A stretch of DNA of 64,000 nucleotides, taken from the NCBI GenBank assembly GCA_964648295.1, contig CAZYNH010000004.1, forward strand, positions 613 to 64,612, read 5' to 3'. The notes under the pieces were generated by a model, which was given only the letters and a program-made list of their open reading frames with translations, was not told the DNA's origin and did not search any database. Of the stretch, positions 25,093 to 52,445 are shown in pieces. Position 1 is the first letter of the stretch, and each line of letters opens with the position of its first letter. A program made the translations under genes and the position numbers. The stretch comes from an uncultured Bacteroidia bacterium (lineage in GTDB: Bacteria > UBA4055).

Positions 25093-27495
25093 TTATTCTC
25101 CGGTTTTCGGCAGTGTGAAATAGAAGCAGGCTCCTTTCCCTTCGCCTTCAGACTCTCCTCTTACAGCTCCTCCGTGCCTTTCGACAATGCGCCTTACATT
25201 TGCCAGACCGATCCCGGTTCCCTCGTATTCTGATTTGCCGTGAAGCCTGTAGAACACTCCGAAAAGTTTATCTGAGTAATTCATATCGAACCCCGCGCCG
25301 TTGTCTCTGACAAAAAATTCAAAACAGTCCCCCTTATCTTTACATCCAATCATTATTTCCGGATTTGGAGTTTTTGAACTATATTTTAAAGCATTTTCTA
25401 TCAGGTTAAGCCAAACAGTCCTGATAAGGTTCTCGTCGCAAAAAACAACCGCAGGCAGATCATTATACTCGATCGAAGCTTTTGAGTATTTTTCTTCACA
25501 TAGAAGTTTTTCTTTTAAATCTTTCAGAATATCCTGAATATTCACAGCTTTCCTGTTAAGGTCAGCGCGACCTGTTTTTGAATACTCAAGCAGATCGTCT
25601 ATCAAAGCTCCCATATCAAGAGCGCTTGAAGAAATCTTATTCAGATATTCAAGAGCTTCTTTGCCGCAGTTTGAACATATCTGCTCCATTGAGCGGGCGA
25701 AGCCGTTTATGTGGCGAAGGGGCGCTCTTAAATCGTGCGATACGCTGTACGCGAACGACTCCAGTTCCCTGTTCGACAACTCAAGTTCTTTAGTGCGTTC
25801 GACAACCTTTCTAGAAAGCTTTTCGTTCAGGATTTTGATCTCCTCCTGAGCCGCTTTGATATCTGAAACATCATAGAACATCACTGCCATTCTGTTTTTT
25901 TCTATGCCGAAAGCGACGATGTTAAAGCAGCCTTTGATACCCTTATGGTCATAAGGAAAGCTGTCAGTAGTCCAGTTAACCCCTTCCGCAGCGACTTTTT
26001 TATACATCTCCGGGATATCGGTGACGGCAAGCATCGGGAACGCCTCTTCTATTGTTTTTCCCAAGAACCTGCCGTGATCGGTCCCGATTATTCTGTCGGC
26101 CGCAGGATTGTAACCGGAAAAGACAAGACTGCCGGCACTTGTAAGTTCGTAGACATAAATTCCAAACGGGGCTGATTCGACTATCTTTCTGAAAGAACTT
26201 TCGCTGGCTATTCTTTTTTCTTCAGCATTGTATTTCTCGGTAACATCGGAAAAGACCATGATCACCCCGTGAATGTTCCCGCTTTGGTCTCTGATCGGAG
26301 CGGCGGAATCCGCTATCTGGAATTCCCTGCCGTCTCTGGCGATTAAAACCGTGTGGTTCGCAAGCCCGACGGTTTTTCCTTTTGCGATCACCAGTTCTGC
26401 GGGATTTATTACCTCCTGTCTCGTATCGGCATTCACTATCCTGAAGATTTCACTGAGGGGTTTTCCCATAGCTTCTTCAAGCTTCCATCCGGTAAGTTCC
26501 AGTGATGTTTTGTTCATGTTGACGATATTGCCGGATATGTCGGTGCTGATCACTCCGTCGCCGATGGATTCGAGCGTGATCCTCAGGTTCTCTTCGCTTT
26601 TGATCAGCGAAAGGGTCTTTTTCTTTATCTCCCGTTTAAGTATCAGCATAAAAAACGCAAGCACAATTAACGCTGAGATGATTATTAGCATCAACGATCT
26701 TAGCCATACCGGAAAAATATTTTTCTGAAAGGAGCTTTTATTGAATAAAGCGTCAAGCGCGGAATAATAAACGGATTTTTTGTCGGATTTTAACTCCGAA
26801 AGCCTGCGGTCCAGTCTTTCGATTATTTTATCGGCGTCGGGATTATTTTTCCTAAGAGCGTATTGCATTCTGGCCGGCTGAAGGATAACAGGTGTAGATT
26901 CAATTGAATAATATTTTTCATTATCGCTGCCGAAATCCTTGTCAACGAGTCCGGCGTCGATTGAACCCAGCTCGAGGTAACTGAAAATGTCTTTATAACT
27001 TTCGAGTTCAGCTACGGTGGCGTTTATCTGGAAATCCCTGAGCAGCCTTTTCAGCCCGTCGGGACCTTCAAGATCAAAACTGTTCCTGAGCCCGCCTATC
27101 CTCATATTCTCAAGATCGAGAATGCTCTGAATTACGGCGTTTTTGTTCCTGTATAATTTCGTCCAGCTGAGATATACCGTTTCGTTATTGAATGAATACT
27201 TCTGTTTCCTCGCGGGAGTCACGCCTGTATCTGTCATTATGTCAATATCACCGTTCTCGAGCCTGCGCAAGCATTCATCCCATGTCCCGTAAACCCATTT
27301 AAGATCCCAGTTCTCCTTTTCCGCTATCGCGACGGTTATCTCATACCAGAAACCGGCGAGTTTCCCGTTCTCGTCCATATAAATCTTTGGCGGGTTGTCG
27401 TAAGCACCCGCGCGGATAGTCTCCGCAGATGATACTGACAATGAGAATATTAAGAACAAAAATAAGAAATCCCTGAGAACTTTAGCTTTCATCAT
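25093..27495 (-). CDS. Sensor histidine kinase with periplasmic solute-binding (SBP family 3-like) domain, TM helix, PAS, HisKA, HATPase_c
   Basis: Signal peptide; periplasmic domain (ETIRAGAYDNPPKIYMDENGKLAGFWYEI); TM helix; PAS; HisKA (YSVSHDLRAPLRHI); HATPase (VRDNGAGF, GTGIGLANVRRI). Confidence 0.85.
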   Translation of the reverse strand: MMKAKVLRDFLFLFLIFSLSVSSAETIRAGAYDNPPKIYMDENGKLAGFWYEITVAIAEKENWDLKWVYGTWDECLRRLENGDIDIMTDTGVTPARKQKYSFNNETVYLSWTKLYRNKNAVIQSILDLENMRIGGLRNSFDLEGPDGLKRLLRDFQINATVAELESYKDIFSYLELGSIDAGLVDKDFGSDNEKYYSIESTPVILQPARMQYALRKNNPDADKIIERLDRRLSELKSDKKSVYYSALDALFNKSSFQKNIFPVWLRSLMLIIISALIVLAFFMLILKREIKKKTLSLIKSEENLRITLESIGDGVISTDISGNIVNMNKTSLELTGWKLEEAMGKPLSEIFRIVNADTRQEVINPAELVIAKGKTVGLANHTVLIARDGREFQIADSAAPIRDQSGNIHGVIMVFSDVTEKYNAEEKRIASESSFRKIVESAPFGIYVYELTSAGSLVFSGYNPAADRIIGTDHGRFLGKTIEEAFPMLAVTDIPEMYKKVAAEGVNWTTDSFPYDHKGIKGCFNIVAFGIEKNRMAVMFYDVSDIKAAQEEIKILNEKLSRKVVERTKELELSNRELESFAYSVSHDLRAPLRHINGFARSMEQICSNCGKEALEYLNKISSSALDMGALIDDLLEYSKTGRADLNRKAVNIQDILKDLKEKLLCEEKYSKASIEYNDLPAVVFCDENLIRTVWLNLIENALKYSSKTPNPEIMIGCKDKGDCFEFFVRDNGAGFDMNYSDKLFGVFYRLHGKSEYEGTGIGLANVRRIVERHGGAVRGESEGEGKGACFYFTLPKTGE

Positions 27496-27632
27496 GCCTC
27501 CGGATTATGTATCATAATGACAATATAATCTTTGTTCTCTCAAATTCAAGCAAAATAATTATTGTTTTTTTATAATCGCATAAGTCATAATAATTGTATA
27601 TATTACAGATCAAAATAAATCGGAACAGGATA

Positions 27633-30600
27633 ATGAGCAGATCCCTTTCTATTTTCATACTCTTCACTTTAACCTTTCTATTCCCGTTCGGCAAAAATAA
27701 AGTTCAGTACCACGATTTTGACTGGAATTTCATAGAAACGGATCATTTCAGGATATATTTCTACCGGGGCGGCGAACACCTTGCGGAATTCACCGCCGAA
27801 GCCGCTGAAATGTCGCTTGAATTCTTAAGAAGGGATATGATGTTCGTTCCGAGGTCAAAAGTGCATGTGATCGTATATAACTCCCACAACCATTTTGAGG
27901 AAACGAATGTGATGGGCGGCATCCCGGAGGAATCGGTCGGCGGTTTCACGGAATTCTTCAAGAACAGGGTCGTGGTGCCGTATGAAGGCAACTGGGAAGG
28001 GTTCAGGCATGTGATACATCATGAACTCACGCACGCGATCATGAACCAGATGCTGTTCCAGGGCAATTACCAGTCCATCGTGGCCGGATTAAGCAAGATG
28101 AACATGCCGCTTTGGTTCATTGAAGGAATAGCCGAATACGAAAGCCGGGGAGGGTGGGACAGCGAATCCGACCAGACAGTAAGGGACGCGGTATATCACA
28201 ATTACATCGGCAATGTCTACTATCTCAACAATTACATGGCATACAAAGGCGGCCAGTCCCTTTTCAAATACATTGCTGACACTTACGGAAGCAAGAAGAT
28301 CGGAGAGGTACTAAGATCTATAAACATGATAAGGTCGGTCGAGGACGCGTTCTTAGACGCCATAGGCACGAATTTTACCGATCTCTCACAGAACTGGGAT
28401 AAATGGCTTAAAACGAAGTATTGGGACAGCCTGATAAAGACTGATGAGCCTAAAGCGGTCGCGACGATGCTTTCTGACCATGAGAAATACGGAAATTCGA
28501 TAAACAACTCCCCCGTCATCAGCCCTGACGGGAAAAAGATAGTTTTTTTGAGCAACAAATCAGATTATTTTGATATATATCTGATGCGTACTTTCGACGG
28601 AGAGATAATAAGGAAGATAGTTTCAGGCCAGTCGTCAGGGGATTTTGAGGAATTCCACTGGCTGAGACCCGGTTTCGCATGGTCGCCGGACAGCCGGTAC
28701 ATAGCGTTCTTCACCAAAAGTTCAGAGCAGGACGCTCTGTTCATTTATGAAGCCGAGACCGGTAAAAGGGTCAAAAGGTTAAAATTCGGTTTAGACGGCC
28801 TGTATTATCCCGAGTGGTCCCGCGACGGAAAGCACCTGTGTTTTACCGGAATAAAGGACGGTTTCTCCGATATCTATCTTTACACCTTAGACAGCGGCGA
28901 GCTCAAAAAACTGACCGACGACATTTATTCGGACAATGAGCCGAAATTCTCCCCTGACGGGAAAAAGATCGCTTTTTCTTCAGACAGAAAGAGAGATCTG
29001 ACCATTGATAAAAAGGAGCTCTCGAATATCCTTAACAGAAATCTGAATGTAAAAGACATTTTTATTCTCGATATTGAATCGGACACCATACATCCCGTCA
29101 CAGAGCCCGACGGGTTCAGAAAATTCTCTCCTTTCTGGATAGACGACAACAGGCTCGGATTTATATCTGACGGGTCAGGTATTTCGAATCTGTACTATAA
29201 GGATATCGAAGCGGATGAAACAACCGGGCTGACCAATTTTATGACAGGCTGCTCTCAGGCATCATATAACGACAATAAGATAGCTTTTACTGCGGTCTTC
29301 AAAGCCGGTTACGATATTTTCATGATCGAGGACGCCGAGAAACTGATAAAAGAAAAAAAAGAGCCCTTATATGTGAGATGGTATGAGGAAACGGACTTCT
29401 CAAAGAAGCCTGCCGAAAAAGATTCGACTTTTGACTACACAAAGACCGATCTGAGAAAATTCAGATTCTCAAAGAACATGCTCGGTAAAGTCTCTGAGGA
29501 AATACTCTCCGACGACCAGAGGTCGCGGCTGAGAACGCCTAAGCCATACGAGATTAAGTTCACGCCTGACATCATAACTGTCAACGCAGGATACGCGACC
29601 GGGTACGGGGTCGTGGGTTCCGCCTACCTTCAGTTCTCGGATTACCTTTCCGACCACAGCTTTATAATAATGACAGATTTAAATCAGGATCTCCTTAACT
29701 CAAATCTAGGATTTTATTATTATTACCTCAAAAAAAGGATAAATCTCGGAATGGGCCTCAGCCATGATGTTGTCTATTATTACATCTGGAACGAAGACGA
29801 CCTTACCGCGAACGACTGGTACAGGGACAGGCTTCTGGGATTTCATCTCATGGCTCAATATCCTTTCAGCAGGTATTCCAGGATAGACTCATATCTGAAT
29901 GTCAAAAGCGTGGTCAATGAGGTTTACAGCATCCCTGCAGAAGACTATATTCACGGAAGCACGAATACGATCTTCACATTCGGGGGCGGATATTCGTACG
30001 ACAATGTGATCTGGGGCTATTACGGGCCCGAGAACGGAACAAGGGTCAGGCTCGAAGCGCTTTACGGGTCGGAAACGGACGATATTTCCTTAAAAGATCC
30101 CTCGACAGCATATTTTTCGACTTTCGGGCTCGATTACAGAAAATACTTCAGGATAAAAGGCGATTATCAGCTGGCATTCAGGTTATCGGGCGCACTAAGC
30201 GAGGGAAGCACTCCCCAGAAATTCTATCTTGGAGGATTATCCAACTGGCTGAATTACAGATTTAATACCGATCACGATTTTGAGACTGTGATAGACAAAT
30301 ACTATTCTTCATACGAATATCCTCTGAGAGGGTTCAGGCTTCTGGAGAAATCCGGGAACAGATACGCTCTTTTTAACACCGAGTTCAGATATCCCTTTAT
30401 AAAGTATTTAGCACTCGGATTCCCTCTTCCGGTGGTATTGGGAAACATAAGCGGGGTTCTTTTTTCAGATGTCGGCAGCGCGTGGAACAATTCGGATTTC
30501 AGGGGAACGGTAAAATATGACGGCGAGAACCGGAGGCTGAACGACATTCTTTTCTCTTCAGGCATAGGTTCAAGGATGAATGTCGGGTATTTCATACTCC

Positions 30601-30683
30601 GTTATGATGTCTCATGGACATGGGATTTCGGATCGTCAAGCTCAAAACCTATGCACATATTCAGCCTGGGGGCAAATTACTAA
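27633..30683 (+). CDS. Putative outer-membrane protein: HExxH metallopeptidase-like domain, PD40 beta-propeller repeats, Omp85/surface-antigen-like beta-barrel
   Basis: Start refined to the ATG at 27633 (MSRSLSIFILF, signal peptide; AGGA RBS). HExxH (HELTHAIMNQ); PD40-type repeats (SPDGKKIVFLS, SPDSRYIAFF, SPDGKKIAFSS); C-terminal FYLGGxxxLRGF-like motif and aromatic-rich tail. Confidence 0.6.
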   Translation: MSRSLSIFILFTLTFLFPFGKNKVQYHDFDWNFIETDHFRIYFYRGGEHLAEFTAEAAEMSLEFLRRDMMFVPRSKVHVIVYNSHNHFEETNVMGGIPEESVGGFTEFFKNRVVVPYEGNWEGFRHVIHHELTHAIMNQMLFQGNYQSIVAGLSKMNMPLWFIEGIAEYESRGGWDSESDQTVRDAVYHNYIGNVYYLNNYMAYKGGQSLFKYIADTYGSKKIGEVLRSINMIRSVEDAFLDAIGTNFTDLSQNWDKWLKTKYWDSLIKTDEPKAVATMLSDHEKYGNSINNSPVISPDGKKIVFLSNKSDYFDIYLMRTFDGEIIRKIVSGQSSGDFEEFHWLRPGFAWSPDSRYIAFFTKSSEQDALFIYEAETGKRVKRLKFGLDGLYYPEWSRDGKHLCFTGIKDGFSDIYLYTLDSGELKKLTDDIYSDNEPKFSPDGKKIAFSSDRKRDLTIDKKELSNILNRNLNVKDIFILDIESDTIHPVTEPDGFRKFSPFWIDDNRLGFISDGSGISNLYYKDIEADETTGLTNFMTGCSQASYNDNKIAFTAVFKAGYDIFMIEDAEKLIKEKKEPLYVRWYEETDFSKKPAEKDSTFDYTKTDLRKFRFSKNMLGKVSEEILSDDQRSRLRTPKPYEIKFTPDIITVNAGYATGYGVVGSAYLQFSDYLSDHSFIIMTDLNQDLLNSNLGFYYYYLKKRINLGMGLSHDVVYYYIWNEDDLTANDWYRDRLLGFHLMAQYPFSRYSRIDSYLNVKSVVNEVYSIPAEDYIHGSTNTIFTFGGGYSYDNVIWGYYGPENGTRVRLEALYGSETDDISLKDPSTAYFSTFGLDYRKYFRIKGDYQLAFRLSGALSEGSTPQKFYLGGLSNWLNYRFNTDHDFETVIDKYYSSYEYPLRGFRLLEKSGNRYALFNTEFRYPFIKYLALGFPLPVVLGNISGVLFSDVGSAWNNSDFRGTVKYDGENRRLNDILFSSGIGSRMNVGYFILRYDVSWTWDFGSSSSKPMHIFSLGANY

Positions 30684-30703: not shown

Positions 30704-31360
30704 ATGATACATATAGCGCCATCCCTTCTATCCGCGGATTTTAGAACGCTGGGATCAGAACTTGAGAGCGTGAAGGAATCAGGAGCAGATTTTCTGCATC
30801 TGGACATAATGGACGGCCATTTCGTTCCGAACATTACTTTCGGCCCGTTTATTGTTGATTTCTGCAGAAAATCTACGGATCTTGTGCTTGATGTTCATCT
30901 GATGATAGAAAGACCGGAGAATTTCATTGCCTCTTTCGCCAAAGCGGGCGCCGATATTATCTCGATACATGTCGAGACATGCCCGCACCTGCACAGACAG
31001 CTTCAGCTGATAAGGTCGCTGGGAGTAAAGTCTGCGGTCGCTGTCAACCCGGCCACGGAAATTGATTTTCTCGATTATGTGATCGACGACCTCGACATGA
31101 TACTCTTCATGACCGTAAACCCGGGCTTTTCAGGCCAGAAATTCATTCCTTCGGTGCTTAACAAGATAGATTCTTTCAACGAAAGGTACAGAAAACACAT
31201 TAAAGAAGACTTCATTGTCCAGGTGGACGGCGGCGTAAATGATGAAACCTGCGCCCTTCTTACCAACAGAGGGGTCAACTGCCTTGTCTCGGGCAATTAT
31301 TTCTTTAAGCACCCGGACAGAAAAAAGGCGGTAAGCATACTCCGCAGCGAAAAAATTTAG
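30704..31360 (+). CDS. rpe: Ribulose-phosphate 3-epimerase
   Basis: Full-length match to the Rpe family (APSLLSADF, HLDIMDGHFVPN, DVHLMI, FMTVNPGFSGQKF, VDGGVN). Confidence 0.9.
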   Translation: MIHIAPSLLSADFRTLGSELESVKESGADFLHLDIMDGHFVPNITFGPFIVDFCRKSTDLVLDVHLMIERPENFIASFAKAGADIISIHVETCPHLHRQLQLIRSLGVKSAVAVNPATEIDFLDYVIDDLDMILFMTVNPGFSGQKFIPSVLNKIDSFNERYRKHIKEDFIVQVDGGVNDETCALLTNRGVNCLVSGNYFFKHPDRKKAVSILRSEKI

Positions 31361-31370
31361 ATTAAAATTT

Positions 31371-33893
31371 ATGACTGCATTATCAGACAGAATAGAAACG
31401 GAATTCCTGCCGTTCGTAAATAAGCCTTTGCGTTACTCGGGTTCTGAAAAGAACACAATTACGAAGACGCACGAAGGAAAGACCAGCATTGTCCTCATAT
31501 ACCCCGACAAATACGAGATAGGCATGTCCTACAAGGGATTCCACATCCTGTACCATGTTCTGAACAGTTTTGAGGATATTGTATGCGAAAGAGCCTTTAT
31601 CCCTGAAAAGGACGCCTGTGATCTTTTGAGAGAGAAGGGCATTCCTCTGTTCAGTCTGGAAACAAGGACGCCGCTTTCCGGCTTCGATTTCGTAGGCATA
31701 ACTCTCCCCTACGAACTGTGCTTTACCAACATACTTGAAATACTTTCACTTTCAGGAATTCCGCTTTACGCAATGGATAGGAAAGGGAAAAAACCTCTTG
31801 TTCTTGGAGGAGGGATCAACGCGATAAACCCGGAGCCCGTCGCGGACTTCTTCGACCTGTTCCTGATAGGTGACGGGGAGGAACGCCTGCCTGAACTGTT
31901 AAAGCTGTACGCAAAAGAAACGGCGGGAGCAAAGGACAGGACCGGTCTGCTCAAGGAACTTTCACAACTTGAAAGCATATATGTACCGTCGCTGAAGACG
32001 GAGAAAACAAAGGTTAAGAAAGCCGTGGCGATGCTCAAGGCGGAGAACTACACGGACAGCCCGGTAGTCCCTTTAATGGAGATCACCCAGGACAGGATCT
32101 CCGTTGAGGTCATGCGCGGCTGCGACCGCGGCTGCCGGTTCTGTCAGGCGGGCTACTATTACCGTCCTTTACGGGAGCGCCCGACCGCCGATATTGTCAG
32201 GCAGGCGTCCTCCATGATCGCCCGCTCGGGCTGGAAAGAGCTGACGCTCCTTTCCCTCTCGACCTCAGATTACACCAACATCGAACCTCTTCTTGAAACA
32301 CTTTATGAAAAATGTTCGATGAAGGGTGTAAAACTCTCGTTCCCGTCCATGCGCGCCGAATCCTTCACCGATGAAATAGCTTTCATCGCGTCGATAGGAA
32401 GAAAAAGTTCCTTCACATTCGCGCCCGAGGCCGGCTCGGAGAGGATGAGGATGATCATCAACAAGCCGATCGAACTGTCATCAATACTCGATGTGCTGGA
32501 AAAAGTGCTCAGGCTCGGCTGGAAAAGCATAAAGCTTTATTATATGATCGGCCTGCCCTTTGAGACGGACGAGGACATCATCGAGATGGCGGAAATGATC
32601 AACGAGATCGGCAGGTACAGCAGCTCCTACGGCAGGATCAAGATCAACGTGTCCATCTCCCCTTTCAACCCCAAGCCGCACACTCCTTTCCAGTGGGCCG
32701 AGCAGGCGCCTCTGAGCGTGTTCAGGAGCAGGATCGGCATACTTCTGTCAAGGGTGAGGACCGCAAATGTTCACATTACCTGGCGCGATCCCGAAGTGTC
32801 CATACTCGAGGCGATATTCTCAAGAGGCGACAGAAGACTCTCCAAAGCGGTTCACGAGGCTTACAAGCAGGGCGCGCTCTTCGACGCGTGGACGGAAAGC
32901 TTCGACTTCGGACTGTGGAAGAAGGTATTCAAAAAGACCGGCGTAGATCCCGACGACTACCTGTCCGAAAGAAAAGTGAACGAACCTCTTCCCTGGGACT
33001 TTATAGACATCGGCGTAAGCAGGGAATTCCTCGAATCGGAATGGGATAAGGCCCGCAGCGAAAGTCTCACGAAATACTGCCTTAAACAGTGCCAGAAATG
33101 CGGGATCGAAAAGGAATATAAATGCAGGGAGCTTCTCGCGGAAAAAGTGAAGGCTCCGGGAATAAAAGAGATCGTAAAGGAACATTCGGAAGTGCTGGGT
33201 CACAAGGCCGAACCCGTTCCCAGAGCTGACGTAAGATACAGAGTAAAGTTCAGAAGGCTGAGATCTTCAAGATTTCTGTCGCAGCGTAACCTGAGCGCGT
33301 ATATCGAAAGGGAGTTCTTCATTCACGACATACCGGTCGCATACACGAAAGGCTTCCATCCCATGCCCGTACTCAGTTTCTCGCACCCTCTCCCGTTCGG
33401 CTTCACCTCCGACTGCGAGTTCGCCGACATCGGCTTCAAGGACGATTACATCGGGGACATCGAATCCGACATGAGAAAGGTATTCTCGAACATCACCGAA
33501 TTCGTCGAGGTCAAAAAGCTCTCCGGCAAGTTCACTCCGCTGATGCATTTCATCGACTATACGGAATATTACATCATCATCCCCGACAACGCAGCCGAAT
33601 ACTTTACGGAATGTATCCTCAAATTCAGATCCAAGAAGAAGCTGATCATAACGAGGGAGAACAAAGGCAAGGTGAAAGAGATCGACATCGTGCCTTTCGT
33701 GCCCAAGCTGGAGTTCGACGGGGACAACGTCATCGCGGGAATAGGCTTCATAGACGGTGCGTCGGTCAAGATGAGCGAGATTTTCGAGCATGTATTTAAA
33801 ATATCCGAAGAGGATTATTACAGATATCCTATAAAAAAGATAAGAACGGGAAAGATGTCAGAGGCAGGACTGATCGACCCGTTCGGCAATTAA
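31371..33893 (+). CDS. B12-binding domain radical SAM protein fused to a C-terminal DUF2344-like domain (TIGR03960/TIGR03936-type)
   Basis: Radical SAM CxxxCxxC motif (CDRGCRFCQAGYY), B12-binding-like N-terminus, long conserved C-terminal extension. Locally higher GC than the kinase island. Confidence 0.75.
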   Translation: MTALSDRIETEFLPFVNKPLRYSGSEKNTITKTHEGKTSIVLIYPDKYEIGMSYKGFHILYHVLNSFEDIVCERAFIPEKDACDLLREKGIPLFSLETRTPLSGFDFVGITLPYELCFTNILEILSLSGIPLYAMDRKGKKPLVLGGGINAINPEPVADFFDLFLIGDGEERLPELLKLYAKETAGAKDRTGLLKELSQLESIYVPSLKTEKTKVKKAVAMLKAENYTDSPVVPLMEITQDRISVEVMRGCDRGCRFCQAGYYYRPLRERPTADIVRQASSMIARSGWKELTLLSLSTSDYTNIEPLLETLYEKCSMKGVKLSFPSMRAESFTDEIAFIASIGRKSSFTFAPEAGSERMRMIINKPIELSSILDVLEKVLRLGWKSIKLYYMIGLPFETDEDIIEMAEMINEIGRYSSSYGRIKINVSISPFNPKPHTPFQWAEQAPLSVFRSRIGILLSRVRTANVHITWRDPEVSILEAIFSRGDRRLSKAVHEAYKQGALFDAWTESFDFGLWKKVFKKTGVDPDDYLSERKVNEPLPWDFIDIGVSREFLESEWDKARSESLTKYCLKQCQKCGIEKEYKCRELLAEKVKAPGIKEIVKEHSEVLGHKAEPVPRADVRYRVKFRRLRSSRFLSQRNLSAYIEREFFIHDIPVAYTKGFHPMPVLSFSHPLPFGFTSDCEFADIGFKDDYIGDIESDMRKVFSNITEFVEVKKLSGKFTPLMHFIDYTEYYIIIPDNAAEYFTECILKFRSKKKLIITRENKGKVKEIDIVPFVPKLEFDGDNVIAGIGFIDGASVKMSEIFEHVFKISEEDYYRYPIKKIRTGKMSEAGLIDPFGN

Positions 33894-33905: not shown

Positions 33906-35501
33906 ATGTTCAAGTGGCTGTTCAGGATCGTTCTGTTCGTAGTATTCGTGGTCGTGGTCGGTCTTTTCGCTTTAAAGATCTACCTGGAGAAATATTTCGA
34001 CAAGGACATTATCGTCAAAGCGGTGGAATCCGAGACCAATTCGAGGTTCGAGCTTTCGGACGTGAGTATCGGGATATTCTCTTTCACTCCGTCGCTGGAG
34101 ATCGACGGGATCAAGCTCGGAAAGAGGGATAAGTACGCGGACGAAAAAGTGCACATCGACGAAAGGCCGAAAATGGAAGGCGAGATCGTCTCCGTCGAGA
34201 AGATCGAGCTGAAAGCCAACCTGATCCCGCTCTTCGACAAGAGGTTCGAGCTGAACAAGTTCATCATCCAGAGGCCGGTCGCAAGACTTGTTCTCGGCGA
34301 AGAGGGACAGGACAACCTTTCTCCCCTGCTCGGTCAGCCTTCCGGAAAAGCTCAGGCGGCGGCTCCGGCTGAAACTGTAGAAGCGGAAAAAGAAGAGAAA
34401 GCAGTTGAGCAGGAAGAAATAAAACAGGCTGAACCGCAACAGGAATTTTCCGCGAAGGACGTCCCGATCGCCGCTACTATGAACCAGATCGGCGTGGAGA
34501 ACGGCGAGGTCGATATTTTCTTCAAGACAACGCAGCAGCGCTTCCTGATCTCGGACTTTTTCATGGTCATTGACAAGATCGACATAGACCCGAAGGACCT
34601 TGTCAATCACAATAAAGCTACCGTCACTTTCAACACGAACATGGCTATATACAACAAGGAAAAGTCCGAACAGGCGAAACTCGGAATCAAGTCGAACGCC
34701 GTTCTCAGACCGCTCGACCCCGAAACAGGCAAACCGAACCCCGAAGCCGTTTACGGCGTAACGCTTACGAAAGGTTCCTTCATTCAGGCGCTCGTGGCAC
34801 TTGAGAAAGCCAAATCTTCAATGGAAACGCTCGAGAAGGTCGGCATCAACCTGGACATCCTGAGCAAGAAAGCAGTACTCAGCAAGGACGCGGAAACCAG
34901 GATCAGCTACAAGGAAGGCAGAGTCGCGTTCGAGGAGGATCTCAAGGTCCTGACCGAGGATTATGATATCGTCATAAGGAAGGAAAGCTGGTTCAACGTA
35001 ATGAACAATCAGCACAATTTTAAAGGCGACGTCACGGTATCCAAAGCCGAATCCGACAAACTCCTCGCGCAGACCGACAAATTCATCGACGACAGCATGA
35101 AAGACGTCAAAATTAAAGGCGTCAAGATAGACAAGCAGGTGATCAAGGACGAACTCCTCTCCGGGCTCTTAAAAGACGGAAGAATATATATCGAGTTCAC
35201 ATCCAAGGGCGACATATCAGACCCCGACGTCAAAGTATCCTTCATGCCCGTCAGCCTCACCGACCTCATAAAGAAGAAAGCCGGCGCGCTCGTTGACCAG
35301 AAGATCGAGGAAGTAAAACAGAAGGTCAATGAAGAAGTCGATAAAGCCAAAGCCGAAGCTCAGGCCAAAATAGACGAAGAGAAAGCCAAAGCCGAAGCCA
35401 AAGCAGCGGAGGAAAAAGCGGCAGCCGAAGCCAAGGCTAAAAAAGAAGCCGAAAAAGCGGCAGCCGAAGCCAAGAAAAAGATCAAAATACCCGGATTCTA
35501 A
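33906..35501 (+). CDS. AsmA-family-like membrane-anchored protein with Lys/Ala/Glu-rich C-terminal tail
   Basis: N-terminal TM anchor (FRIVLFVVFVVVVGLFAL), AsmA-like N-terminal region, low-complexity tail (KAKAEAQAK...AEAKKK). RBS AGGAGG upstream. Confidence 0.5.
   Translation: MFKWLFRIVLFVVFVVVVGLFALKIYLEKYFDKDIIVKAVESETNSRFELSDVSIGIFSFTPSLEIDGIKLGKRDKYADEKVHIDERPKMEGEIVSVEKIELKANLIPLFDKRFELNKFIIQRPVARLVLGEEGQDNLSPLLGQPSGKAQAAAPAETVEAEKEEKAVEQEEIKQAEPQQEFSAKDVPIAATMNQIGVENGEVDIFFKTTQQRFLISDFFMVIDKIDIDPKDLVNHNKATVTFNTNMAIYNKEKSEQAKLGIKSNAVLRPLDPETGKPNPEAVYGVTLTKGSFIQALVALEKAKSSMETLEKVGINLDILSKKAVLSKDAETRISYKEGRVAFEEDLKVLTEDYDIVIRKESWFNVMNNQHNFKGDVTVSKAESDKLLAQTDKFIDDSMKDVKIKGVKIDKQVIKDELLSGLLKDGRIYIEFTSKGDISDPDVKVSFMPVSLTDLIKKKAGALVDQKIEEVKQKVNEEVDKAKAEAQAKIDEEKAKAEAKAAEEKAAAEAKAKKEAEKAAAEAKKKIKIPGF
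35330..35480 (+). repeat. Low-complexity GCC/AAA/GAA-rich coding repeat (K/A/E-rich tail of the AsmA-like gene)
   Basis: Repeated units such as aaagccgaagcc / gcagccgaagccaag visible in the sequence. Confidence 0.5.
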
Positions 35502-38746: not shown

Positions 38747-40069
38747 TTACACCTTTTTACTTTTTAGCACTTCTTCTACCGCGGAAAAAACATATTCCGG
38801 ACTGGAGTTATGCAGCAGCACGGTCATATCTGTTCCTGCATCTTCGCTTGTTCTAATAAAATATCCGATCTCTTTCTTTATATCCTCTTTATTCAGCCTG
38901 TTACGGGCATATAGCGTTGTATCCATCACAACCAGCGGTCTTTCCGTAATCTGATAAGGTCTTCTTTTATCAAAATCCCAAGGTCTGAATTCTCTTCCTG
39001 TTCCGCAGCGGAAACCGGCATGGGCTGAGTAACCCATAGTAAAGTCATGAGTTATTCCCGAATTTTCCAGAATCCCGTAAGAACTTCTAACATCGAACTG
39101 AAGAAAATGCGCCCTTCCCTTATTTACTGTAATGCAGTACTTCTTCTCCAGTTCCGACTTCTCGGCAATAATATTTTTTTCGTTCAGGAGAGAAAAATAA
39201 CCGTAGTGAAGCCCGATCTCAGCCCCTTTATTACAAAGTCCGGAGAATACCGCCTTATCCCTGTTTTGCCTGGTGAACCATCCGTCATTATACGGTCCTT
39301 CGGGTGATGTCAGTATAAAATAAACAGGCTTCGTTCCAAGCCGGCCGGCTGTCTCATTTATCCTGCCGAATCTGTCATAAGGGTCTTTTGCCCCCAGCAT
39401 CTTTGCTGTATACCTGAAAAGATCGGAAACAAAGAGAAAAGGGTCGAACCTTTTTATAATATGGCCGGCGAACATCTTGAGCGTTCTGCCCGGAAGGAAT
39501 TTTTCAAAAGAGTCGACATCGCAGGTTACGAATATTCCCGGTTTATGCTCAACAAAAGATATTGAAGGATCAAGTTTACGAATAAGTTTTTTTAAAAAGT
39601 TCGCATATTCGTCAACAACCGGACGCTTTATAAAGCCGTCTTTTACCGACAGGCACAGTTCCGATACAGTTCTGCCGTGATCGTCCTTTTCTTCTATCGC
39701 GGACTCCTCCCACCTGCTGAGCATGAAGAATACCGACGCGACTATATCGAACTCTATTCTGATCTCATTTTCATTTTCAAAAAAAGACCCGTCACCGAAG
39801 ATCAGCGGAAGATCATCACAATAGCTGCAGGTGAGGCGTTCCGTTCTCTGCGGGATCAGACTTCTGTCAATATATGTGTCCCAGCCCTCCGCTCTTCTGA
39901 AGAAAATATCGCTGAAAATGATCTTCTTGTTTCCGGGCAGGATGAACTCGTAGTCTTCCGATCCCCGCTCGATCACAAAGTCCGATCCTGTGAAAGCGGA
40001 AAGAGCTTTCAGAGCATATTGTTTCTCTTCGATATAGCTCCCGGGTATTCTGATCAGTATCTCTGCCAC
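38747..40069 (-). CDS. Hypothetical protein, possibly polysaccharide deacetylase (CE4)-like
   Basis: Track ORF runs to 40339 but would overlap the upstream permease gene by 270 nt; a GTG at 40067-40069 (VAEILIRIPG) overlapping that gene's stop is the more plausible start. Weak CE4-like features (GLHYGYFS, VVMDTTLY). Confidence 0.4.
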   Translation of the reverse strand: MAEILIRIPGSYIEEKQYALKALSAFTGSDFVIERGSEDYEFILPGNKKIIFSDIFFRRAEGWDTYIDRSLIPQRTERLTCSYCDDLPLIFGDGSFFENENEIRIEFDIVASVFFMLSRWEESAIEEKDDHGRTVSELCLSVKDGFIKRPVVDEYANFLKKLIRKLDPSISFVEHKPGIFVTCDVDSFEKFLPGRTLKMFAGHIIKRFDPFLFVSDLFRYTAKMLGAKDPYDRFGRINETAGRLGTKPVYFILTSPEGPYNDGWFTRQNRDKAVFSGLCNKGAEIGLHYGYFSLLNEKNIIAEKSELEKKYCITVNKGRAHFLQFDVRSSYGILENSGITHDFTMGYSAHAGFRCGTGREFRPWDFDKRRPYQITERPLVVMDTTLYARNRLNKEDIKKEIGYFIRTSEDAGTDMTVLLHNSSPEYVFSAVEEVLKSKKV

Positions 40070-41136
40070 TATTTGGCCCTCCTTATCAGATAAAGGCCTG
40101 TTAGGCCGAAAATAATGTTCGGAGCCCACGCCGAAACTGTTACGCCGAGCTGACCCACCGAGCCCCAGTTCTTGAACATGATTATAAGAAGATAATAAAT
40201 GAAAGCGATCCCGACAGAGATCCCGAAATTGACAGAAACGGCGCTTCTTGCTCTTCCCGTACCCAGAGGTATCGCGATAAGTATAAGAACCAGATTGATC
40301 ACGCTGTACGATATTTTTGAATATTTCTCTACCTCCCATTTGGTCATCTCAGCTCCGAGCTTCTTCTTTTTTTCTATATACTCGCTCAGTTCAAAAAAGC
40401 CCATCTCAATTGGTTTGAGCTCGGTCTGAGTAATGTCTTCAGGCTCAAAATCAAGAAAAATTGACATCCTCTCCAGCCTTTCGAAAGCGGTCGAGTCCTC
40501 AATAAAAGTGCGCCTTACAACATTCTTCAGTTCCCATTTGCCATCGGAATATGTCATTTCATCGGCGTCTAGCCTGAAATCTATCTTTCCGTCATGAATA
40601 GCCTGAATAGATATCCCTCCGGCGATGTTGCGGTTGCCGTCGAAGGTGCTTATATAAACGATGCTGTTGCCTTCCTGATATACGAACTCATTGTACTTTC
40701 TGTGAATTTTCGCCGATTTTGTAAGGTAATAATCCTTGGCCTCATAATGTTTCCTTGAAGCGTAAGGCACGACCGTTTCGGCAAAATAAAAATGTCCGGC
40801 CGAGATAAGTATTCCAAGAATAATGAACGGCAGGGATATCCTGAACAAACTGATTCCGGAAGAAAGCATCGCCACGATCTCGTTGTATTTTGTCAGACTG
40901 CCCAAAGTAATAAGCAGCGCCATGAAACTGACCAGCGGAAGTATCTGCGATATTATCTCAGGTATCTTGAGGGTATAGTATAAAAAATAACCCATTAACG
41001 GCATATTCGAATCGAGAAATCTGTTGAGATGATCGAAAAGATCGATGATGATGTAGACGATTATCATTGTTGCAAGAGATACGAAAAGCGTTATTATAAA
41101 TTTTTTTACGAGGTATGTATCGAGGATCTTTACCAT
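40069..41136 (-). CDS. LptF/LptG-family LPS export permease (second of pair)
   Basis: YjgP/YjgQ-family N-terminus (MVKILDTYLVKKFIITLFVSLATMIIVYIIIDLF), 6-TM layout with a periplasmic domain; start overlaps the stop of the upstream paralogue. Confidence 0.8.
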   Translation of the reverse strand: MVKILDTYLVKKFIITLFVSLATMIIVYIIIDLFDHLNRFLDSNMPLMGYFLYYTLKIPEIISQILPLVSFMALLITLGSLTKYNEIVAMLSSGISLFRISLPFIILGILISAGHFYFAETVVPYASRKHYEAKDYYLTKSAKIHRKYNEFVYQEGNSIVYISTFDGNRNIAGGISIQAIHDGKIDFRLDADEMTYSDGKWELKNVVRRTFIEDSTAFERLERMSIFLDFEPEDITQTELKPIEMGFFELSEYIEKKKKLGAEMTKWEVEKYSKISYSVINLVLILIAIPLGTGRARSAVSVNFGISVGIAFIYYLLIIMFKNWGSVGQLGVTVSAWAPNIIFGLTGLYLIRRAK

Positions 41137-42323
41137 TATTTTCCCGGCCTGAATTTGTGTAGTACATAGTAAATGGACGAAGTGACCCATGAGAAATTGA
41201 TCTTGAAACCTCTTGAAGCATATCTAATCATGATAAGACCGAGAATGCCTATTACGATATTCGCGTTCCACATCGCCATGGCGGGATCCAGTTTGCCTCT
41301 GTCCGCCAGGTCCTCGCCGGAGATCAGAAAGAACCAGTAAACCGTGAATACAAGTATGCTGAGCGTGGCGGAAGGGCCGAGCCCTCCCCGCCCGGACATG
41401 AGTCCAAGAGGCGCTCCGATAAGCACCATTATCAGGCAGGCTAAAGAAAGCGCGTATTTCTTATGATATTCAACCTCGACCTGCGCGATTAAAAGAGGAG
41501 ACGCTTTCCTTGCTTTTAGACGCTCTATCTTTGCGAGAAGGCTGTCCGCGCTTTTTTCCCTGTCCCCGTAATAATTTTTATCCTCGACCTCAAAATCTAT
41601 GCCTGACACTTCTTTTGTCAGCTCCATTTTTGAGAATTTCGACCTGAAATATCCGTCAGGTTTCTGCGGGTCAAGGTTGGCTATCTCGCCGTCCGACAGG
41701 ATTATCCTGTACCTTTTGACTGCCTGATCGTATATCATTTTACCTCTGTCGGCCGTGATCGTTCTTCTTTCCTTTCCCCTTTTAGTGCCTTCAAGTATTA
41801 CAACTTTATACAGCTCGTTCTTGTGGTGATCCACGGACTCAGCCTTGATCACATAGCCCGGAATATCCGTGATGAATACGCCCGGCTCGATCACCGCGAG
41901 AGGTTTCTTTTTTGTGATCGAGGACTTGATTATCTTGCTTTTATGATTCATTTCCGGAAGTATGTTATTATGAAAATATATCATCCCCCAGCTCAGCAGT
42001 ATCGAGGCGATCACGGCGGGCGCTATAGCCTGATAGACCGATATGCCGCTTGACTGCATAACCGACCACTCGTTATCCTGCGACAGCCTGCCGTAGGCCA
42101 TCAGTGAAGCGACAAGGACAGACATGGGAATGGCGAGCGCAAGTATCCAGCCGAGGCTGAGATAAAAGAACTCAATTATCACTATTATATCGAGCCCCTT
42201 ACCGACAAAAGTCGTCATCATTTTCATTACGATATTCAGAATGAAAAGCGAAAGGATCATTATAAGAGACATAAAGAAAGGAAAAACATGCCCGCGGAGT
42301 ATGTAAAGATAAAGTATTCTCAA
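41136..42323 (-). CDS. LptF/LptG-family LPS export permease (first of pair)
   Basis: YjgP/YjgQ-family N-terminus (MRILYLYILRGHVFPFFMSLIMILSLFILNIV), same architecture as the next gene. Confidence 0.8.
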   Translation of the reverse strand: MRILYLYILRGHVFPFFMSLIMILSLFILNIVMKMMTTFVGKGLDIIVIIEFFYLSLGWILALAIPMSVLVASLMAYGRLSQDNEWSVMQSSGISVYQAIAPAVIASILLSWGMIYFHNNILPEMNHKSKIIKSSITKKKPLAVIEPGVFITDIPGYVIKAESVDHHKNELYKVVILEGTKRGKERRTITADRGKMIYDQAVKRYRIILSDGEIANLDPQKPDGYFRSKFSKMELTKEVSGIDFEVEDKNYYGDREKSADSLLAKIERLKARKASPLLIAQVEVEYHKKYALSLACLIMVLIGAPLGLMSGRGGLGPSATLSILVFTVYWFFLISGEDLADRGKLDPAMAMWNANIVIGILGLIMIRYASRGFKINFSWVTSSIYYVLHKFRPGK

Positions 42324-45300
42324 TTTTTTATCGCCTCAAGCATCAGTTCGACAGCCTTTTTTATCTCAGGTTCGTCATCGTTTATTATCTGATTGAAGGT
42401 CGGTTCTACCAGAATATCCGGTTCTACTCCGTTACCCTCCATATTGGTTCCGTCTTTTCTGTACCATCCTACTCTCGGCAGCCTCATTGACGAACCGTCC
42501 ATCAGAGTATGGTGACTGGTGCCTATGACCCCGCCCGTGGTCGGCGAACCGATGATCTTTCCCAGTCCCATCTCCCTGTAAATCGCGGGGAATATCTCCG
42601 CGTCGGAAAAGGAGTGGGTATTTATAAGGACAACGGAAGGTTTATCCCATATATCGAAAGGCGTTTTAAGCTTTTCCGCCCTGTTCCATCTGTAGGCTGA
42701 ATACGCGTACTGCTTTTTGGTTAATATCTCTAGGAGCTCGTCATGTGTATATCCTCCGCCGTTGAACCTGACATCGATTATAAGCGCTTCTTTGCTGAAC
42801 GTCTCTGAAAACAGATCCTCTTTGAATTTCTGAAGAGGGCCTTCGGTCATTCCCTGAATATGTATGTAACCTATCCTTCCTCCGCTGAGTCTGTCAACCA
42901 TGTCGCGTCTTTCTTTTACCCATGTATTGTATTTCAACTGATAATCACTTTCGAGACCCTTTATGGTGATATTTGCAGTTTTACCGTCCTTTTTTGTAAT
43001 ATCAAGCCTTATTTTTTCACCTGTCTTGTTCACAAAAAGCGTAAAAATATCTGTTTTTGGCGTTATTTCGACCCCGTCGACAGCGGTAAGTATATCTCCC
43101 GCCTGAACATTGTGTACGGTCATAAGTACGGAACCTTCATATACTTTGCTTATCCTCAAGCCTTTTTCAAGTCTTTTTTTCAGATCGAACTCGGCTCCGA
43201 TGTAGGCGTATTTCATCACAGCAGGGCCGGGTTCCTGTACGGGATAATATCCCGTATGAGACGAATTCACATCCCCGATCATTTCATCAATGATAGAAGA
43301 GAAACTTTCACTGTCCATGTTTATGCTCAGATAAGCCGAAAAATCCTTCTTCTGCTTTTCCCAGTCCGTTCCGTGCATTGCAGGGTCATAGAACCATCTC
43401 TTAAAGACCGAATGGATCTCATCGAACACCTTCCAGAAAATCTCCTGCCTGTTGTATTCATATTTCGTGTTAAAAGCAGTATCTTTGGATTTCTTTGAAG
43501 CCATTTCGAAAGACTTGATCCTGCCGTCCTGAAGATAAAAAACAGTTGATGTGGAATCGCAGAAGGAAAATTTTCTGATTCCGTTGCCTTTGAATTCTGT
43601 TATAAGCTCGTCTTTTCCCGACTGATAATCGGTCTTCCACAGGCTTTTATTATTATCGGTCTCATTAATGTAAAAGATCTCACGGTCTTTGTTGAGCGCG
43701 ATAATATAATTATTTCCCTGTTTTTTGATTATTTCCTTTTCAAAACTGTTAAGGTTCTTTTTGAAAAAATCAGATTTGATCTCCTGATCCTTTTCCGATT
43801 TTTTCTTTTTATCCTTTTTATCAAAAATATCTTTCCACTTATCTTTCTCAAAATGGAATTCCGAAATGTTCTTCATGTCGCTTCTGTATATCACGCCGCC
43901 CTTATTGTAAAAAAAGAACTCCTCTTTCGGGTCGAGCATGAAATTGTTTGTCCAGTCAACACCGGAATAAATAAGCTCTCTGCTGTTCTTTTTTGAATCG
44001 TACATATAAAGGTCGGTTCTGAAAATGCCCGGCTCTAAAACCGTATAGAAAACGAATGAGCCGTCGGCGGATATGTCCGCATCTATAACATATTTGCCTT
44101 TCTCAATGTCTGTAAATTCATCCCCGGAATTATCTTTCAGGGCAAGTTTATTCCTTTCGTCCCCCACGGAATAAAAAACAAATATTCTTCCCTTTATATA
44201 CTTTATCATGTCGATTGCCTTTTCACGGCTCCAGGTAAGCATTTCCGGAGTTTTTGCCGACCGGATGTCAGTTTTATACAGTTTCGGTTCGCCGGAGACC
44301 AGCATGGAAAAATATACCGTCTCGTTATCTGACGCGATCACAAAATCAGTTATGCCGTTTGAATCCGTCGTTATTCTCCTGATCTCACCGCCCTCGTACG
44401 GTACCGCGAAAAGATCGAACTTGTATTTATAAAGGATCCAGTTCCCCAGCGGCGAAACGCAATACTTATCGGTGGAAGACGCGTTCGCTTCGCTCACGAC
44501 ATCGGGTCCGAATATGTCCTCTTTTATGTCAATTTCGATCTTTTCGGCTTTTTTCAAAGCCGGGTCGAGCGTCCAGAGCCCGTCAAAGTACTCATAGACC
44601 ATCCTGTCATTCTCGCGGGCTATGGATATATCTCTTGCCGACCACCAGTCGAAATCAGTGAGCTGCTCGACGCGCGGTTCCTGTTTGCCGATCTCTTCCT
44701 GCGGCAGTAAAAAGATCTGGAATCTTTCACCGTCAGATCCCGCAAAATATATTCCTTTTCCGGTCTTTGAGTACACCGGGTATCTCTCTGTATATTTGCC
44801 GTCGTAGATCCTGTAATACGAGTCTGTAGCAAAATCGAGAAGGTGCAGACTTCCGCTTCCGCTGCCCGTCATTTTTTCTCTGAATGGCTCTCCCCTGTGG
44901 CAGAAAACGAATTTGTCATCGTCTTTTGAAAGATCTCCGTAAATAAAACCTGCTGAGTTAAGATCGGTCAGGCCGCTGCCGTCAAGTTTAACTTTGTACA
45001 GTTTGTTGCCCACAAATCTTTCACCGGCTGAAAGCAGAAGTTCATCCGAGTCTTTAAACCAGCCTGTGAGTAAATAATTTCCGGATATGACCTTTTTCGC
45101 AATACCGCCTCCTGACGGCATATAATAGATCGTGCTGTATCCGTCTCTGTTCGAGTTAAAAGCGATCTTTTTCCCGTCCGGCGAATATGACGGGTTCGAA
45201 TCCTCTCCGAAAACCGAGGTGAGCCTTTTTGCCGTTCCCCCTTCAAAAGGTACTGCCCACAGATTTTTTTTGTATGAGAAACATACTGTATTCCCGTCCG

Positions 45301-45388
45301 GAGAGATAGCCGGGTCCTTCATAAAAAAAGGTTCGAACGCCCAGAGCTGTACAGATATTAAAAGTACCGAAAACGAAAACAATCTCAT
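42320..45388 (-). CDS. Tricorn-protease-like S41 family peptidase with PD40/TolB-like beta-propellers and PDZ domain
   Basis: Signal peptide; PD40 repeats (SPDGNTVCFSY, SPDGKKIAFNS); C-terminal S41 core (VLINTHSFSDAEIFPAIYREMGLGKIIGSPTTGG). Confidence 0.8.
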   Translation of the reverse strand: MRLFSFSVLLISVQLWAFEPFFMKDPAISPDGNTVCFSYKKNLWAVPFEGGTAKRLTSVFGEDSNPSYSPDGKKIAFNSNRDGYSTIYYMPSGGGIAKKVISGNYLLTGWFKDSDELLLSAGERFVGNKLYKVKLDGSGLTDLNSAGFIYGDLSKDDDKFVFCHRGEPFREKMTGSGSGSLHLLDFATDSYYRIYDGKYTERYPVYSKTGKGIYFAGSDGERFQIFLLPQEEIGKQEPRVEQLTDFDWWSARDISIARENDRMVYEYFDGLWTLDPALKKAEKIEIDIKEDIFGPDVVSEANASSTDKYCVSPLGNWILYKYKFDLFAVPYEGGEIRRITTDSNGITDFVIASDNETVYFSMLVSGEPKLYKTDIRSAKTPEMLTWSREKAIDMIKYIKGRIFVFYSVGDERNKLALKDNSGDEFTDIEKGKYVIDADISADGSFVFYTVLEPGIFRTDLYMYDSKKNSRELIYSGVDWTNNFMLDPKEEFFFYNKGGVIYRSDMKNISEFHFEKDKWKDIFDKKDKKKKSEKDQEIKSDFFKKNLNSFEKEIIKKQGNNYIIALNKDREIFYINETDNNKSLWKTDYQSGKDELITEFKGNGIRKFSFCDSTSTVFYLQDGRIKSFEMASKKSKDTAFNTKYEYNRQEIFWKVFDEIHSVFKRWFYDPAMHGTDWEKQKKDFSAYLSINMDSESFSSIIDEMIGDVNSSHTGYYPVQEPGPAVMKYAYIGAEFDLKKRLEKGLRISKVYEGSVLMTVHNVQAGDILTAVDGVEITPKTDIFTLFVNKTGEKIRLDITKKDGKTANITIKGLESDYQLKYNTWVKERRDMVDRLSGGRIGYIHIQGMTEGPLQKFKEDLFSETFSKEALIIDVRFNGGGYTHDELLEILTKKQYAYSAYRWNRAEKLKTPFDIWDKPSVVLINTHSFSDAEIFPAIYREMGLGKIIGSPTTGGVIGTSHHTLMDGSSMRLPRVGWYRKDGTNMEGNGVEPDILVEPTFNQIINDDEPEIKKAVELMLEAIKN

Positions 45389-52100: not shown

Positions 52101-52445
52101 CCCGCTGAGCACTTTTTCCAGAGTGACGAGTCTTGAGCCTTTCCTTTCGTCGTCGATGTCGCCTGAACAGTATGGGTAATTCTCGCCGGGAAGAAGCAGG
52201 TCGCAGGCATCGTCCTTTCCCGCGATCAGGTTAATATCATCCCTGAATTTTTCCGCGTTCTCGACTGAATCCGCAAAAAATACGACCTTCATTTTGTTCT
52301 TTTCGTGCAGGTATGACAATAAAAATGCCCTGAATGAGTAAGTGATGCCTTTAGAGCGGACGATCTTCTGCCTGCCTATTATCTCTGCCGATCTTTCAAG
52401 GTCCGGTGACGCAAATATTGCTTTTTTTAATTTCTGAACTGACAT
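49113..52445 (-). CDS. mfd: Transcription-repair coupling factor
   Basis: 1110 aa; superfamily-2 helicase motifs ([19 protein letters not shown]), Mfd-like N- and C-terminal regions. Confidence 0.92.

Follow-up and report, generated by a model that had tools for sequence, protein, structure and literature searches.

A zincin-PD40-Omp85 protein of the WD40-like Omp85 subfamily encoded by an uncultured Bacteroidia bacterium: predicted anatomy and candidate envelope-protease function

The biogenesis of the outer membrane and several routes of secretion have Omp85 proteins at their centre, and for most Omp85 subfamilies the function is known. In PlpD, the passenger is a patatin lipase, and a POTRA domain is present. 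Heinz and Lithgow (2014, Front Microbiol 5:370, PMC4104836) divided the Omp85/TpsB proteins into ten subfamilies, one of which was called 'WD40-like Omp85'. The main text of that survey discusses only a TolB-like propeller for this subfamily and suggests a BamA-BamB-like fusion; in its Table S3, each member has a match to a BamA/TamA barrel (4k3b or 4c00, ~100), a match to TolB (2w8b or 2ivz, ~100) and a 'best aminopeptidase hit' (1z5h, 4kxd, 4fgm, 3qnf or 4ar1, ~99% confidence), and the POTRA columns are empty. A publication of 2024 (PMC11358297) ascribes 'divergent WD40 and peptidase domains' to the subfamily. A system of separate parts is that of BepA, an M48 zinc metallopeptidase with a TPR domain that acts at the β-barrel assembly machinery (BAM) complex (PMC8423444). 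Here we describe a gene at positions 27633..30683 (+) of a 64,000-nucleotide stretch of DNA (contig CAZYNH010000004.1, positions 613 to 64,612; referred to below as the window) from an uncultured Bacteroidia bacterium, whose 1016-amino-acid (aa) product joins a putative zinc peptidase, a TolB-type β-propeller and an Omp85-type barrel.

We concluded that this protein is a member of the WD40-like Omp85 subfamily, to which it was assigned by its identical architecture and by the phyla to which we take the listed members to belong. The members given in Table S3 of PMC4104836 include H1XQ58, B0VIY2 and D0MEQ5. Full-length relatives of our protein were found in Calditrichota and Cloacimonadota, with 38-50% identity. 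The accession prefixes in that table presumably include Caldithrix, Cloacimonas and Rhodothermus. The protein has the same three modules as the members of 2014 and likewise no POTRA domain, and there is no difference in kind. It differs from them in that its lineage was unsampled in 2014 (the closest relatives are from Candidatus Delongbacteria, with 76-83% identity) and in that its peptidase domain is nearer by fold to the M9 and M30 peptidases than to M1. The initial annotation of this locus had described the tripartite architecture as unusual. This description has to be withdrawn, as the architecture is widespread and was catalogued in 2014; the design has been known bioinformatically since then, and the locus adds one Delongbacteria-like member, not a new kind of system. 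What the present analysis contributes to the description of the subfamily is the M9/M30-like affinity of the peptidase fold, a 28-residue insert in loop L6 of the barrel, a disordered tether in the place of POTRA domains, and the strict conservation of the catalytic site.

The open reading frame (ORF) listing of the window contains a long ORF at 27594(TTG)..30683 (+), with an in-frame ATG at 27633. The product from this ATG starts MSRSLSIFILFTLTFLFPFGKNKVQY and is identical from end to end with the database protein P0001, whose gene lies on a 507.9-kb contig; the ATG is in line with the starts of the homologues in the alignment, and an AGGA lies just 5' of it. We therefore took ATG 27633 as the start, the coordinates of the gene including the stop codon. 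The TTG at 27594 was rejected as a start, since it would add 13 residues that have no counterpart in the homologues, and the database gene calls use the ATG.

For the analysis of conservation, 32 full-length homologues with 40-83% identity were aligned, and the regions of the protein were compared by their mean majority-residue fraction; the motif and neighbour counts out of 80 given below refer to the loci of 80 species-level genome representatives from many phyla. The peptidase domain is the best-conserved part of the protein (0.71), followed by the propeller (0.63), the barrel (0.57) and the linker between propeller and barrel (0.37). Highest conservation in the peptidase and lowest in the linker is the pattern that a flexibly tethered, active enzyme should show. 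The full-length AlphaFold2 (AF2) model, which had a predicted local distance difference test score (pLDDT) of 77 and a predicted template modelling score (pTM) of 0.75, shows an α/β domain at aa ~30-270, 23 strands at aa 290-565 and long antiparallel strands at 643-1013.

The protein begins with a signal-like segment (aa 1-18, 27633..27686, +; SLSIFILFTLTFLF), in which a short charged N-terminal region precedes a hydrophobic stretch. In the hydropathy scan, residues 4-17 were strongly hydrophobic, as would suit a Sec signal peptide; a signal peptide had been proposed for this gene. In the alignment, the KSB1 homologues have A-x-A-like sites just ahead of a conserved octapeptide, FGKNKVQY (aa 19-26, 27687..27710, +), which directly follows the signal-like region and is invariant in the alignment; the pattern FGxNxVQ was matched in 76 of the 80 loci. 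FGKNKVQY is kept from Delongbacteria to Ignavibacteriota and surpasses most of the catalytic domain in conservation, yet it has low confidence in the model. The octapeptide might constitute the N-terminus of the mature protein, serve in latency or docking, or supply a strand to complete a sheet.

The octapeptide is followed by a predicted clan-MA gluzincin peptidase domain (aa 27-270, 27711..28442, +), composed of a mixed β-sheet, an active-site helix, a helix carrying the candidate glutamate ligand and a C-terminal helical bundle. Pfam places it only in the generic family Peptidase_MA_2 (PF13485), with a match at aa 65-260 scoring 47 bits against a cut-off of 32.4. The HExxH sequence HELTHAIMNQ, from which a metallopeptidase-like region had initially been proposed, corresponds to aa 130-139 and lies within this match. 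The segment HHELTH (aa 129-134, 28017..28034, +) contains the motif residues H130, E131 and H134, which are predicted to bind zinc and to take part in catalysis; R125, H126, H129, H130, E131 and H134 are all invariant among the 32 homologues, and the motif was found in 80/80 loci. A candidate third zinc ligand, E164, lies 30 residues past H134 in the helix WFIEGIAEYES (aa 161-171, 28113..28145, +), with E168 as an alternative, and P159, W161, E164, G165, E168 and S171 are invariant as well. HExxH followed 29-30 residues on by EGxxE is present in all 80 species representatives, and the spacing between HExxH and the glutamate was fixed at 29-30 residues in the 79 loci scored. About 27 residues before HExxH there is an invariant Gly-Gly segment, GGFTEFFKNR (aa 103-112, 27939..27968, +), which has low confidence in the model. 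Its position is, as we take it, that of the double-Gly edge-strand motif of M9 peptidases and of GxMEN in M1 peptidases.

A separate AF2 model of aa 19-286 (pLDDT 80, pTM 0.80) shows a thermolysin-like zincin fold, in which HHELTH lies on a long helix and E164 and E168 on the next helix but one; the fold further comprises a mixed sheet and, C-terminally, a helical sub-domain. In the fold search, this domain scored 13.4 with ColT, 12.9 with ColG and 12.8 with ERAP1, and there were a long series of M1 aminopeptidases (10-12.5), M61 (~10) and thermolysin (8.5); it was nearer to M9 and M30 than to M1. Among the NCBIfam profiles, flagellinolysin matched over the HExxH core (aa 126-256, 2.9e-9). The domain thus resembles the M9 collagenases, flagellinolysin and M30 in its catalytic core and in the long spacing between HExxH and the glutamate; it shares 11-13% identity with M9/M30 and is without the collagenase activator or accessory domains. 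When the N-terminal domain alone was compared by phmmer with the PDB sequences, no solved peptidase was found, and the best match (E 1.2) was to an unrelated dehydrogenase; the kinship to zincins is therefore visible only through the Pfam and NCBIfam profiles and the fold. The predicted structure makes the N-terminal domain a zinc peptidase similar to M9, M30 and M1, in which the HExxH...E site is intact, and the motif invariance together with the modelled fold predicts that it binds zinc and hydrolyzes peptide bonds.

The second module is a predicted six-bladed β-propeller of TolB/PD40 type (aa 285-565, 28485..29327, +). The PD40 repeats that had been noticed in the sequence were detected by Pfam with 63.5 bits, the NCBIfam TolB propeller gave a partial match of 5e-35, and a search of the PDB sequences with the whole protein returned matches through the propeller only, to TolB (2e-15). 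TolB structures were also retrieved from the PDB by Foldseek (E 5e-10), and the 23 strands in this region of the model correspond to six four-stranded blades. TolB is thus the closest protein in both sequence and fold. The protein is not a TolB orthologue, however: its score with the profile TIGR02800 was 121.1 against an equivalog cut-off of 343.15, and only the propeller blades were matched, in the PDB TolB alignments as well. TolB has an α/β N-terminal domain, which is absent from our protein. In having a propeller next to a peptidase domain, the protein resembles tricorn and the S9 peptidases, which are serine peptidases, whereas the catalytic type here would be metallo.

The propeller is joined to the barrel by a charged linker of about 75 aa (aa 566-640, 29328..29552, +). 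Its length in the homologues is 68-98 aa, and it is by far the least conserved region. In the model, aa ~575-640 had low pLDDT, with 10-residue blocks down to 36 and residues 590-630 at 36-55, and the 75 residues ahead of the first barrel strand were mostly coil with one short helix. No POTRA domain was present in the Pfam or NCBIfam matches or in the AF2 model. At the junction of peptidase and propeller, the 10-residue blocks had a pLDDT of 85-92 without a low-confidence break. Since the confidence at this junction is high, and the linker is both poorly conserved and of low confidence, the model suggests that the N-terminal ~545 residues, comprising peptidase and propeller, form one rigid module on a flexible tether.

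The C-terminal 376 residues (aa 641-1016, 29553..30680, +) are predicted to be a 16-strand outer-membrane barrel of Omp85 type. The count of 16 transmembrane strands (aa 643-1013) is our interpretation of the DSSP string of the AF2 model, in which the turns on the periplasmic side comprise 2-7 residues and the loops on the external side are longer. In the Foldseek search against the PDB, BamA barrels stood side by side with the TolB structures at the top of the list, with E ~1e-9, a probability of 1.0 and a TM-score of 0.57-0.61 to barrel-only chains. By NCBIfam, TamL (2.5e-6) and BamA (0.09) matched at aa 895-994, both weakly. When a profile of the family barrel alone was searched against the PDB, BamA chains were the sole matches, with weak E values (0.007-0.5) and with the motifs in register: the family LRG...EFRFP was aligned to BamA LRG...LEYRY, VLFxDxGxAW to VLFADYGGVW, and the C-terminal FSLGAEF to FSLGQTF.

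Three elements of the barrel are characteristic. Loop L6 (aa 858-905, 30204..30347, +) is the longest loop and contains FYLGG (864-868) and PLRGF (897-901). The initial annotation had read a motif of the type FYLGGxxxLRGF here; both parts are indeed present in L6, but they do not form one contiguous motif, as 28 residues are inserted between them. PLRGF is the equivalent of the Omp85 motif (V/I)RG(F/Y) and was aligned to BamA LRG in 8xnb; R899 and G900 are invariant, and PxRG was found in 80/80 loci. FSDVG (aa 944-948, 30462..30476, +) in strand 13 is the Omp85 motif FxDxG; it was aligned to BamA VLFADYGG / VLFWDVGS, and F944 and D946 are invariant. In BamA, the FxDxG motif partners the L6 arginine. 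FSLGANY (aa 1010-1016, 30660..30680, +) is a β-signal-like strand with an aromatic end, in agreement with the terminal aromatic feature suspected from the sequence; it aligns to BamA FSLGQTF, and the C-terminal residue is F or Y in 76 of the 80 relatives. The protein therefore has the 16-strand barrel, the longest loop L6, the (V/I)RG(F/Y)-type and FxDxG motifs and the F-x-L-G-x-x-aromatic C-terminus of BamA and TamA. It departs from them in having no POTRA domain and instead an N-terminal enzyme and propeller on a disordered tether, in the L6 insert between FYLGG and PLRGF, and in a marginal sequence similarity (E 0.007). As judged from model and motifs, the C-terminal region is a barrel of BamA type in which the L6 RG and FxDxG are retained.

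The architecture is stable and widespread across phyla. Among the 8000 candidates scored in a word-indexed protein search, 4865 proteins matched at E<=1e-5. The best 120 of the 4865 were mostly full length (~1010-1095 aa), with a few truncated fragments, and were named in their sources as peptidase MA family metallohydrolase, BamA/TamA family outer membrane protein, PD40 domain-containing protein or biopolymer transporter Tol. In a scan of one genome per species, at least 584 species encoded a relative; among the matches listed, the closest were from Candidatus Delongbacteria (76-80% identity), and those with 36-50% identity were from KSB1, Calditrichota, Ignavibacteriota, Bacteroidota, Zixibacteria, Marinimicrobia, Cloacimonadota, LCP-89 and Kryptonia. 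The N-terminal domain alone gave 545 clusters (50% identity) at E<=1e-30, in which nearly all full-length members were of 920-1190 aa with the domain at residues ~20-290.

From this anatomy we propose that the protein would be exported by Sec and inserted into the outer membrane, where the barrel would serve as an anchor and possibly as a docking site for β-strands. Suspended from the outer membrane, the peptidase-propeller module would reach into the periplasm, where the metallopeptidase would act on envelope proteins or peptides with the help of its propeller. The latter would bind or gate the substrates, a task that propellers also have in TolB, tricorn and the S9 peptidases. The enzyme might remove mis-assembled outer-membrane proteins or lipoproteins, or process one particular envelope substrate. 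The first strand of the solved Omp85 barrels starts on the periplasmic side; given this orientation, the absence of POTRA and a tether without conservation or helical character, the module is predicted most likely to face the periplasm. A single stable architecture across phyla fits a housekeeping role in the envelope. A possible functional analogue is BepA, a periplasmic HExxH zinc protease with an interaction scaffold, which attends to outer-membrane proteins stalled at an Omp85 machine. It is, however, a separate and soluble M48 enzyme with a TPR scaffold, whereas the present protein would be M9/M30/M1-like, with a PD40 propeller, and tethered to its barrel. We hold the anatomy alone to be very probable, and its combination with a periplasm-facing envelope protease for turnover or quality control to be moderately probable.

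Several points weigh against this combined reading. The cleavage site of the signal peptide is atypical in the Delongbacteria sequences. The periplasmic side of the module is one that we infer, and zinc binding, proteolysis and specificity (endo- or aminopeptidase) are likewise read from motifs and fold. The local Pfam scan gave no PF01103 match for this protein at E<=1, although a PF01103 match is precomputed for many of the homologues that are 40-52% identical to it, and by sequence the protein is tied to BamA only weakly (E 0.007). Literature searches returned no experimental study of any member, but only the classification of 2014 and papers that cite it. Finally, a partner gene conserved across phyla was not found in the census of flanking ORFs in the 80 loci, the neighbours being clade-specific.

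In this census, flanking ORFs within ±4 positions were clustered and those within ±2 were compared with Pfam. MlaE was a neighbour in 16 loci, usually followed by an ABC ATPase (MlaF-like; 11-12 loci); a GWxTD protein was found in 13-14 loci, DsbD in 11-12, RNase R in 8-12 with a ~1500-aa TamB/AsmA/DUF748 protein ahead in 11, cytochrome-c assembly genes in 6 and BamD/YfiO-like lipoproteins in 4. These recurrent neighbours lean, suggestively, to genes of periplasm and envelope biogenesis. In KSB1-type genomes, the GWxTD-domain protein (PF20094) is of ~430 aa and directly follows the orthologue, as at L020:4571-5869, and 12-13 other loci have it at +1. The gene for the TamB/AsmA/DUF748 protein occupies the second position 5' of the orthologue in the 11 loci, which are of Ignavibacteriota type (for example, L079:1391-5878).

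In the window, the first downstream gene, after a short gap, encodes ribulose-phosphate 3-epimerase (rpe, 30704-31360, +). Directly 3' of rpe there is a gene for an 840-aa radical-SAM/DUF2344 fusion (31371-33893, +; Radical_SAM_N2, Radical_SAM and DUF2344), followed by one for a 531-aa AsmA-family protein (33906-35501, +; 33.6 bits, just over the cut-off). The order Omp85-type gene, rpe, radical-SAM/DUF2344 and AsmA-like was found in only two of the 80 loci, both from Delongbacteria (L001 and L002). A conserved TamA-TamB-like operon was considered and rejected, as TamB/AsmA proximity is confined to the 11 Ignavibacteriota-type loci and Delongbacteria. The proximity of Omp85 and AsmA genes may be a coincidence or a loose association reminiscent of TamA-TamB.

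A different use of the same modules would be that of a type-Vd-like autotransporter, in which the barrel exports its own peptidase-propeller passenger to the surface, where it would stay attached or be released for nutritional proteolysis. The layout of hydrolase, linker and Omp85 barrel in one polypeptide parallels PlpD, which is discussed in PMC4104836, and a linker of 68-98 aa is long enough to cross the barrel; yet it is poorly conserved and predicted to be disordered, with no conserved pore-spanning helix. The passenger-like part here is zincin plus propeller, its secretion would be hypothetical, and, in contrast to PlpD, the protein has no POTRA domain. To our knowledge, PlpD and the TpsB transporters all have POTRA domains. 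The nearest peptidase folds, those of M9 collagenases, M30 and flagellinolysin, belong to extracellular enzymes, Por_Secre_tail proteins adjoin the gene in 4 loci, and many of the lineages concerned are described as protein or amino-acid fermenters. However, a peptidase domain up to 55% identical between phyla, in one stable architecture, is unusually conserved and atypical of secreted nutritional proteases, and the recurrent neighbours are periplasmic and inner-membrane biogenesis genes, not genes of nutrient uptake. The L6 RG and FxDxG are moreover intact, as in BamA and TamA. We consider self-export of this kind unlikely.

The published idea of a BamA-BamB fusion (PMC4104836) would make the protein an assembly factor, with the barrel as insertase or translocase, the propeller in the place of POTRA/BamB, and the peptidase in an accessory role of proofreading or maturation. 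The invariance of all the core Omp85 motifs would suit such a factor, as would TamB/AsmA-like genes within two genes in Ignavibacteriota loci and in the window, and the adjacent BamD/YfiO-like genes. A propeller fold is also common to the BAM lipoprotein BamB, but its propeller is of PQQ type. BamB is, in addition, eight-bladed (PMC11358297), whereas the propeller here is a six-bladed TolB/PD40 one. The strongest constraint is on the peptidase and not on the barrel, and a flexible, non-conserved linker would be an odd way to place a substrate-delivery scaffold at the lateral gate. POTRA5 is needed for the function of BamA, and POTRA is absent here. An assembly factor is thus quite improbable in our judgement. 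That the resemblance is superficial, with HExxH occurring by chance in a helical domain that is no enzyme, or with a C-terminus other than an Omp85 barrel, would accord with the failure of the N-terminal domain alone to match a solved peptidase by sequence and with the missing PF01103 match, but is extremely unlikely in view of a PF13485 match above cut-off, HExxH and Glu in all 80 loci, a zincin-like fold, a Foldseek probability of 1.0 to BamA and Omp85 motifs in register.

On its 5' side, the gene is divergently transcribed from a sensor kinase gene (25093-27495, -; SBP_bac_3, PAS, HisKA and HATPase_c) across a spacer of 137 bp with 26% G+C (27496..27632), as the initial annotation had it. 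This kinase belongs to an unusually large tandem array of paralogues at 3649-27495, mostly on the minus strand, with at least 10 PAS/HisKA/HATPase_c sensor and hybrid kinases; the ORFs of the array are at 3649, 7477, 10176, 11783, 13743, 16746, 18324, 20645, 23232 and 25093. Several of the kinases have periplasmic sensor domains of the solute-binding types SBP_bac_3 or NMT1, or a 5TMR-LYT module. A 622-aa ORF inside the kinase island (5608-7476, +) had no Pfam match at E<=1e-5.

The second PD40-containing protease that had been noticed in the window, at 42320-45388 (-), is borne out as a tricorn-like S41 protease, with Peptidase_S41, PD40, Tricorn_C1 and PDZ_Tricorn. Its gene overlaps by 4 bp with the start of a gene for a lipopolysaccharide-export permease of the LptF/LptG family (41136-42323, -), which suggests that the two are co-transcribed. 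The context is otherwise one of ordinary housekeeping genes, including those for a DUF7033 protein of 530 aa (38747-40339, -) and for Mfd/TRCF of 1110 aa (49113-52445, -).

We tentatively entertain a further possibility, that the protein is a self-contained POTRA-less outer-membrane machine of an undescribed kind. It could be a covalent 'BepA-on-an-Omp85', in which the seam of the barrel would capture stalled β-barrel or lipoprotein substrates and the propeller-gated zincin would degrade them, or it could represent a new type-V-like class of secretion, in which a peptidase-propeller passenger of ~60 kDa would be exported with no POTRA domain involved. If true, either version would be the first function for an Omp85 subfamily that is kept across Delongbacteria, KSB1, Calditrichota, Ignavibacteriota, Bacteroidota, Zixibacteria and other phyla. 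The subfamily is present, with a strictly conserved catalytic site, in hundreds of species of environmentally important and mostly uncultured phyla, and deciding between a quality-control protease, a surface protease and an assembly factor would fill a gap in the understanding of how these bacteria build and maintain their envelope.

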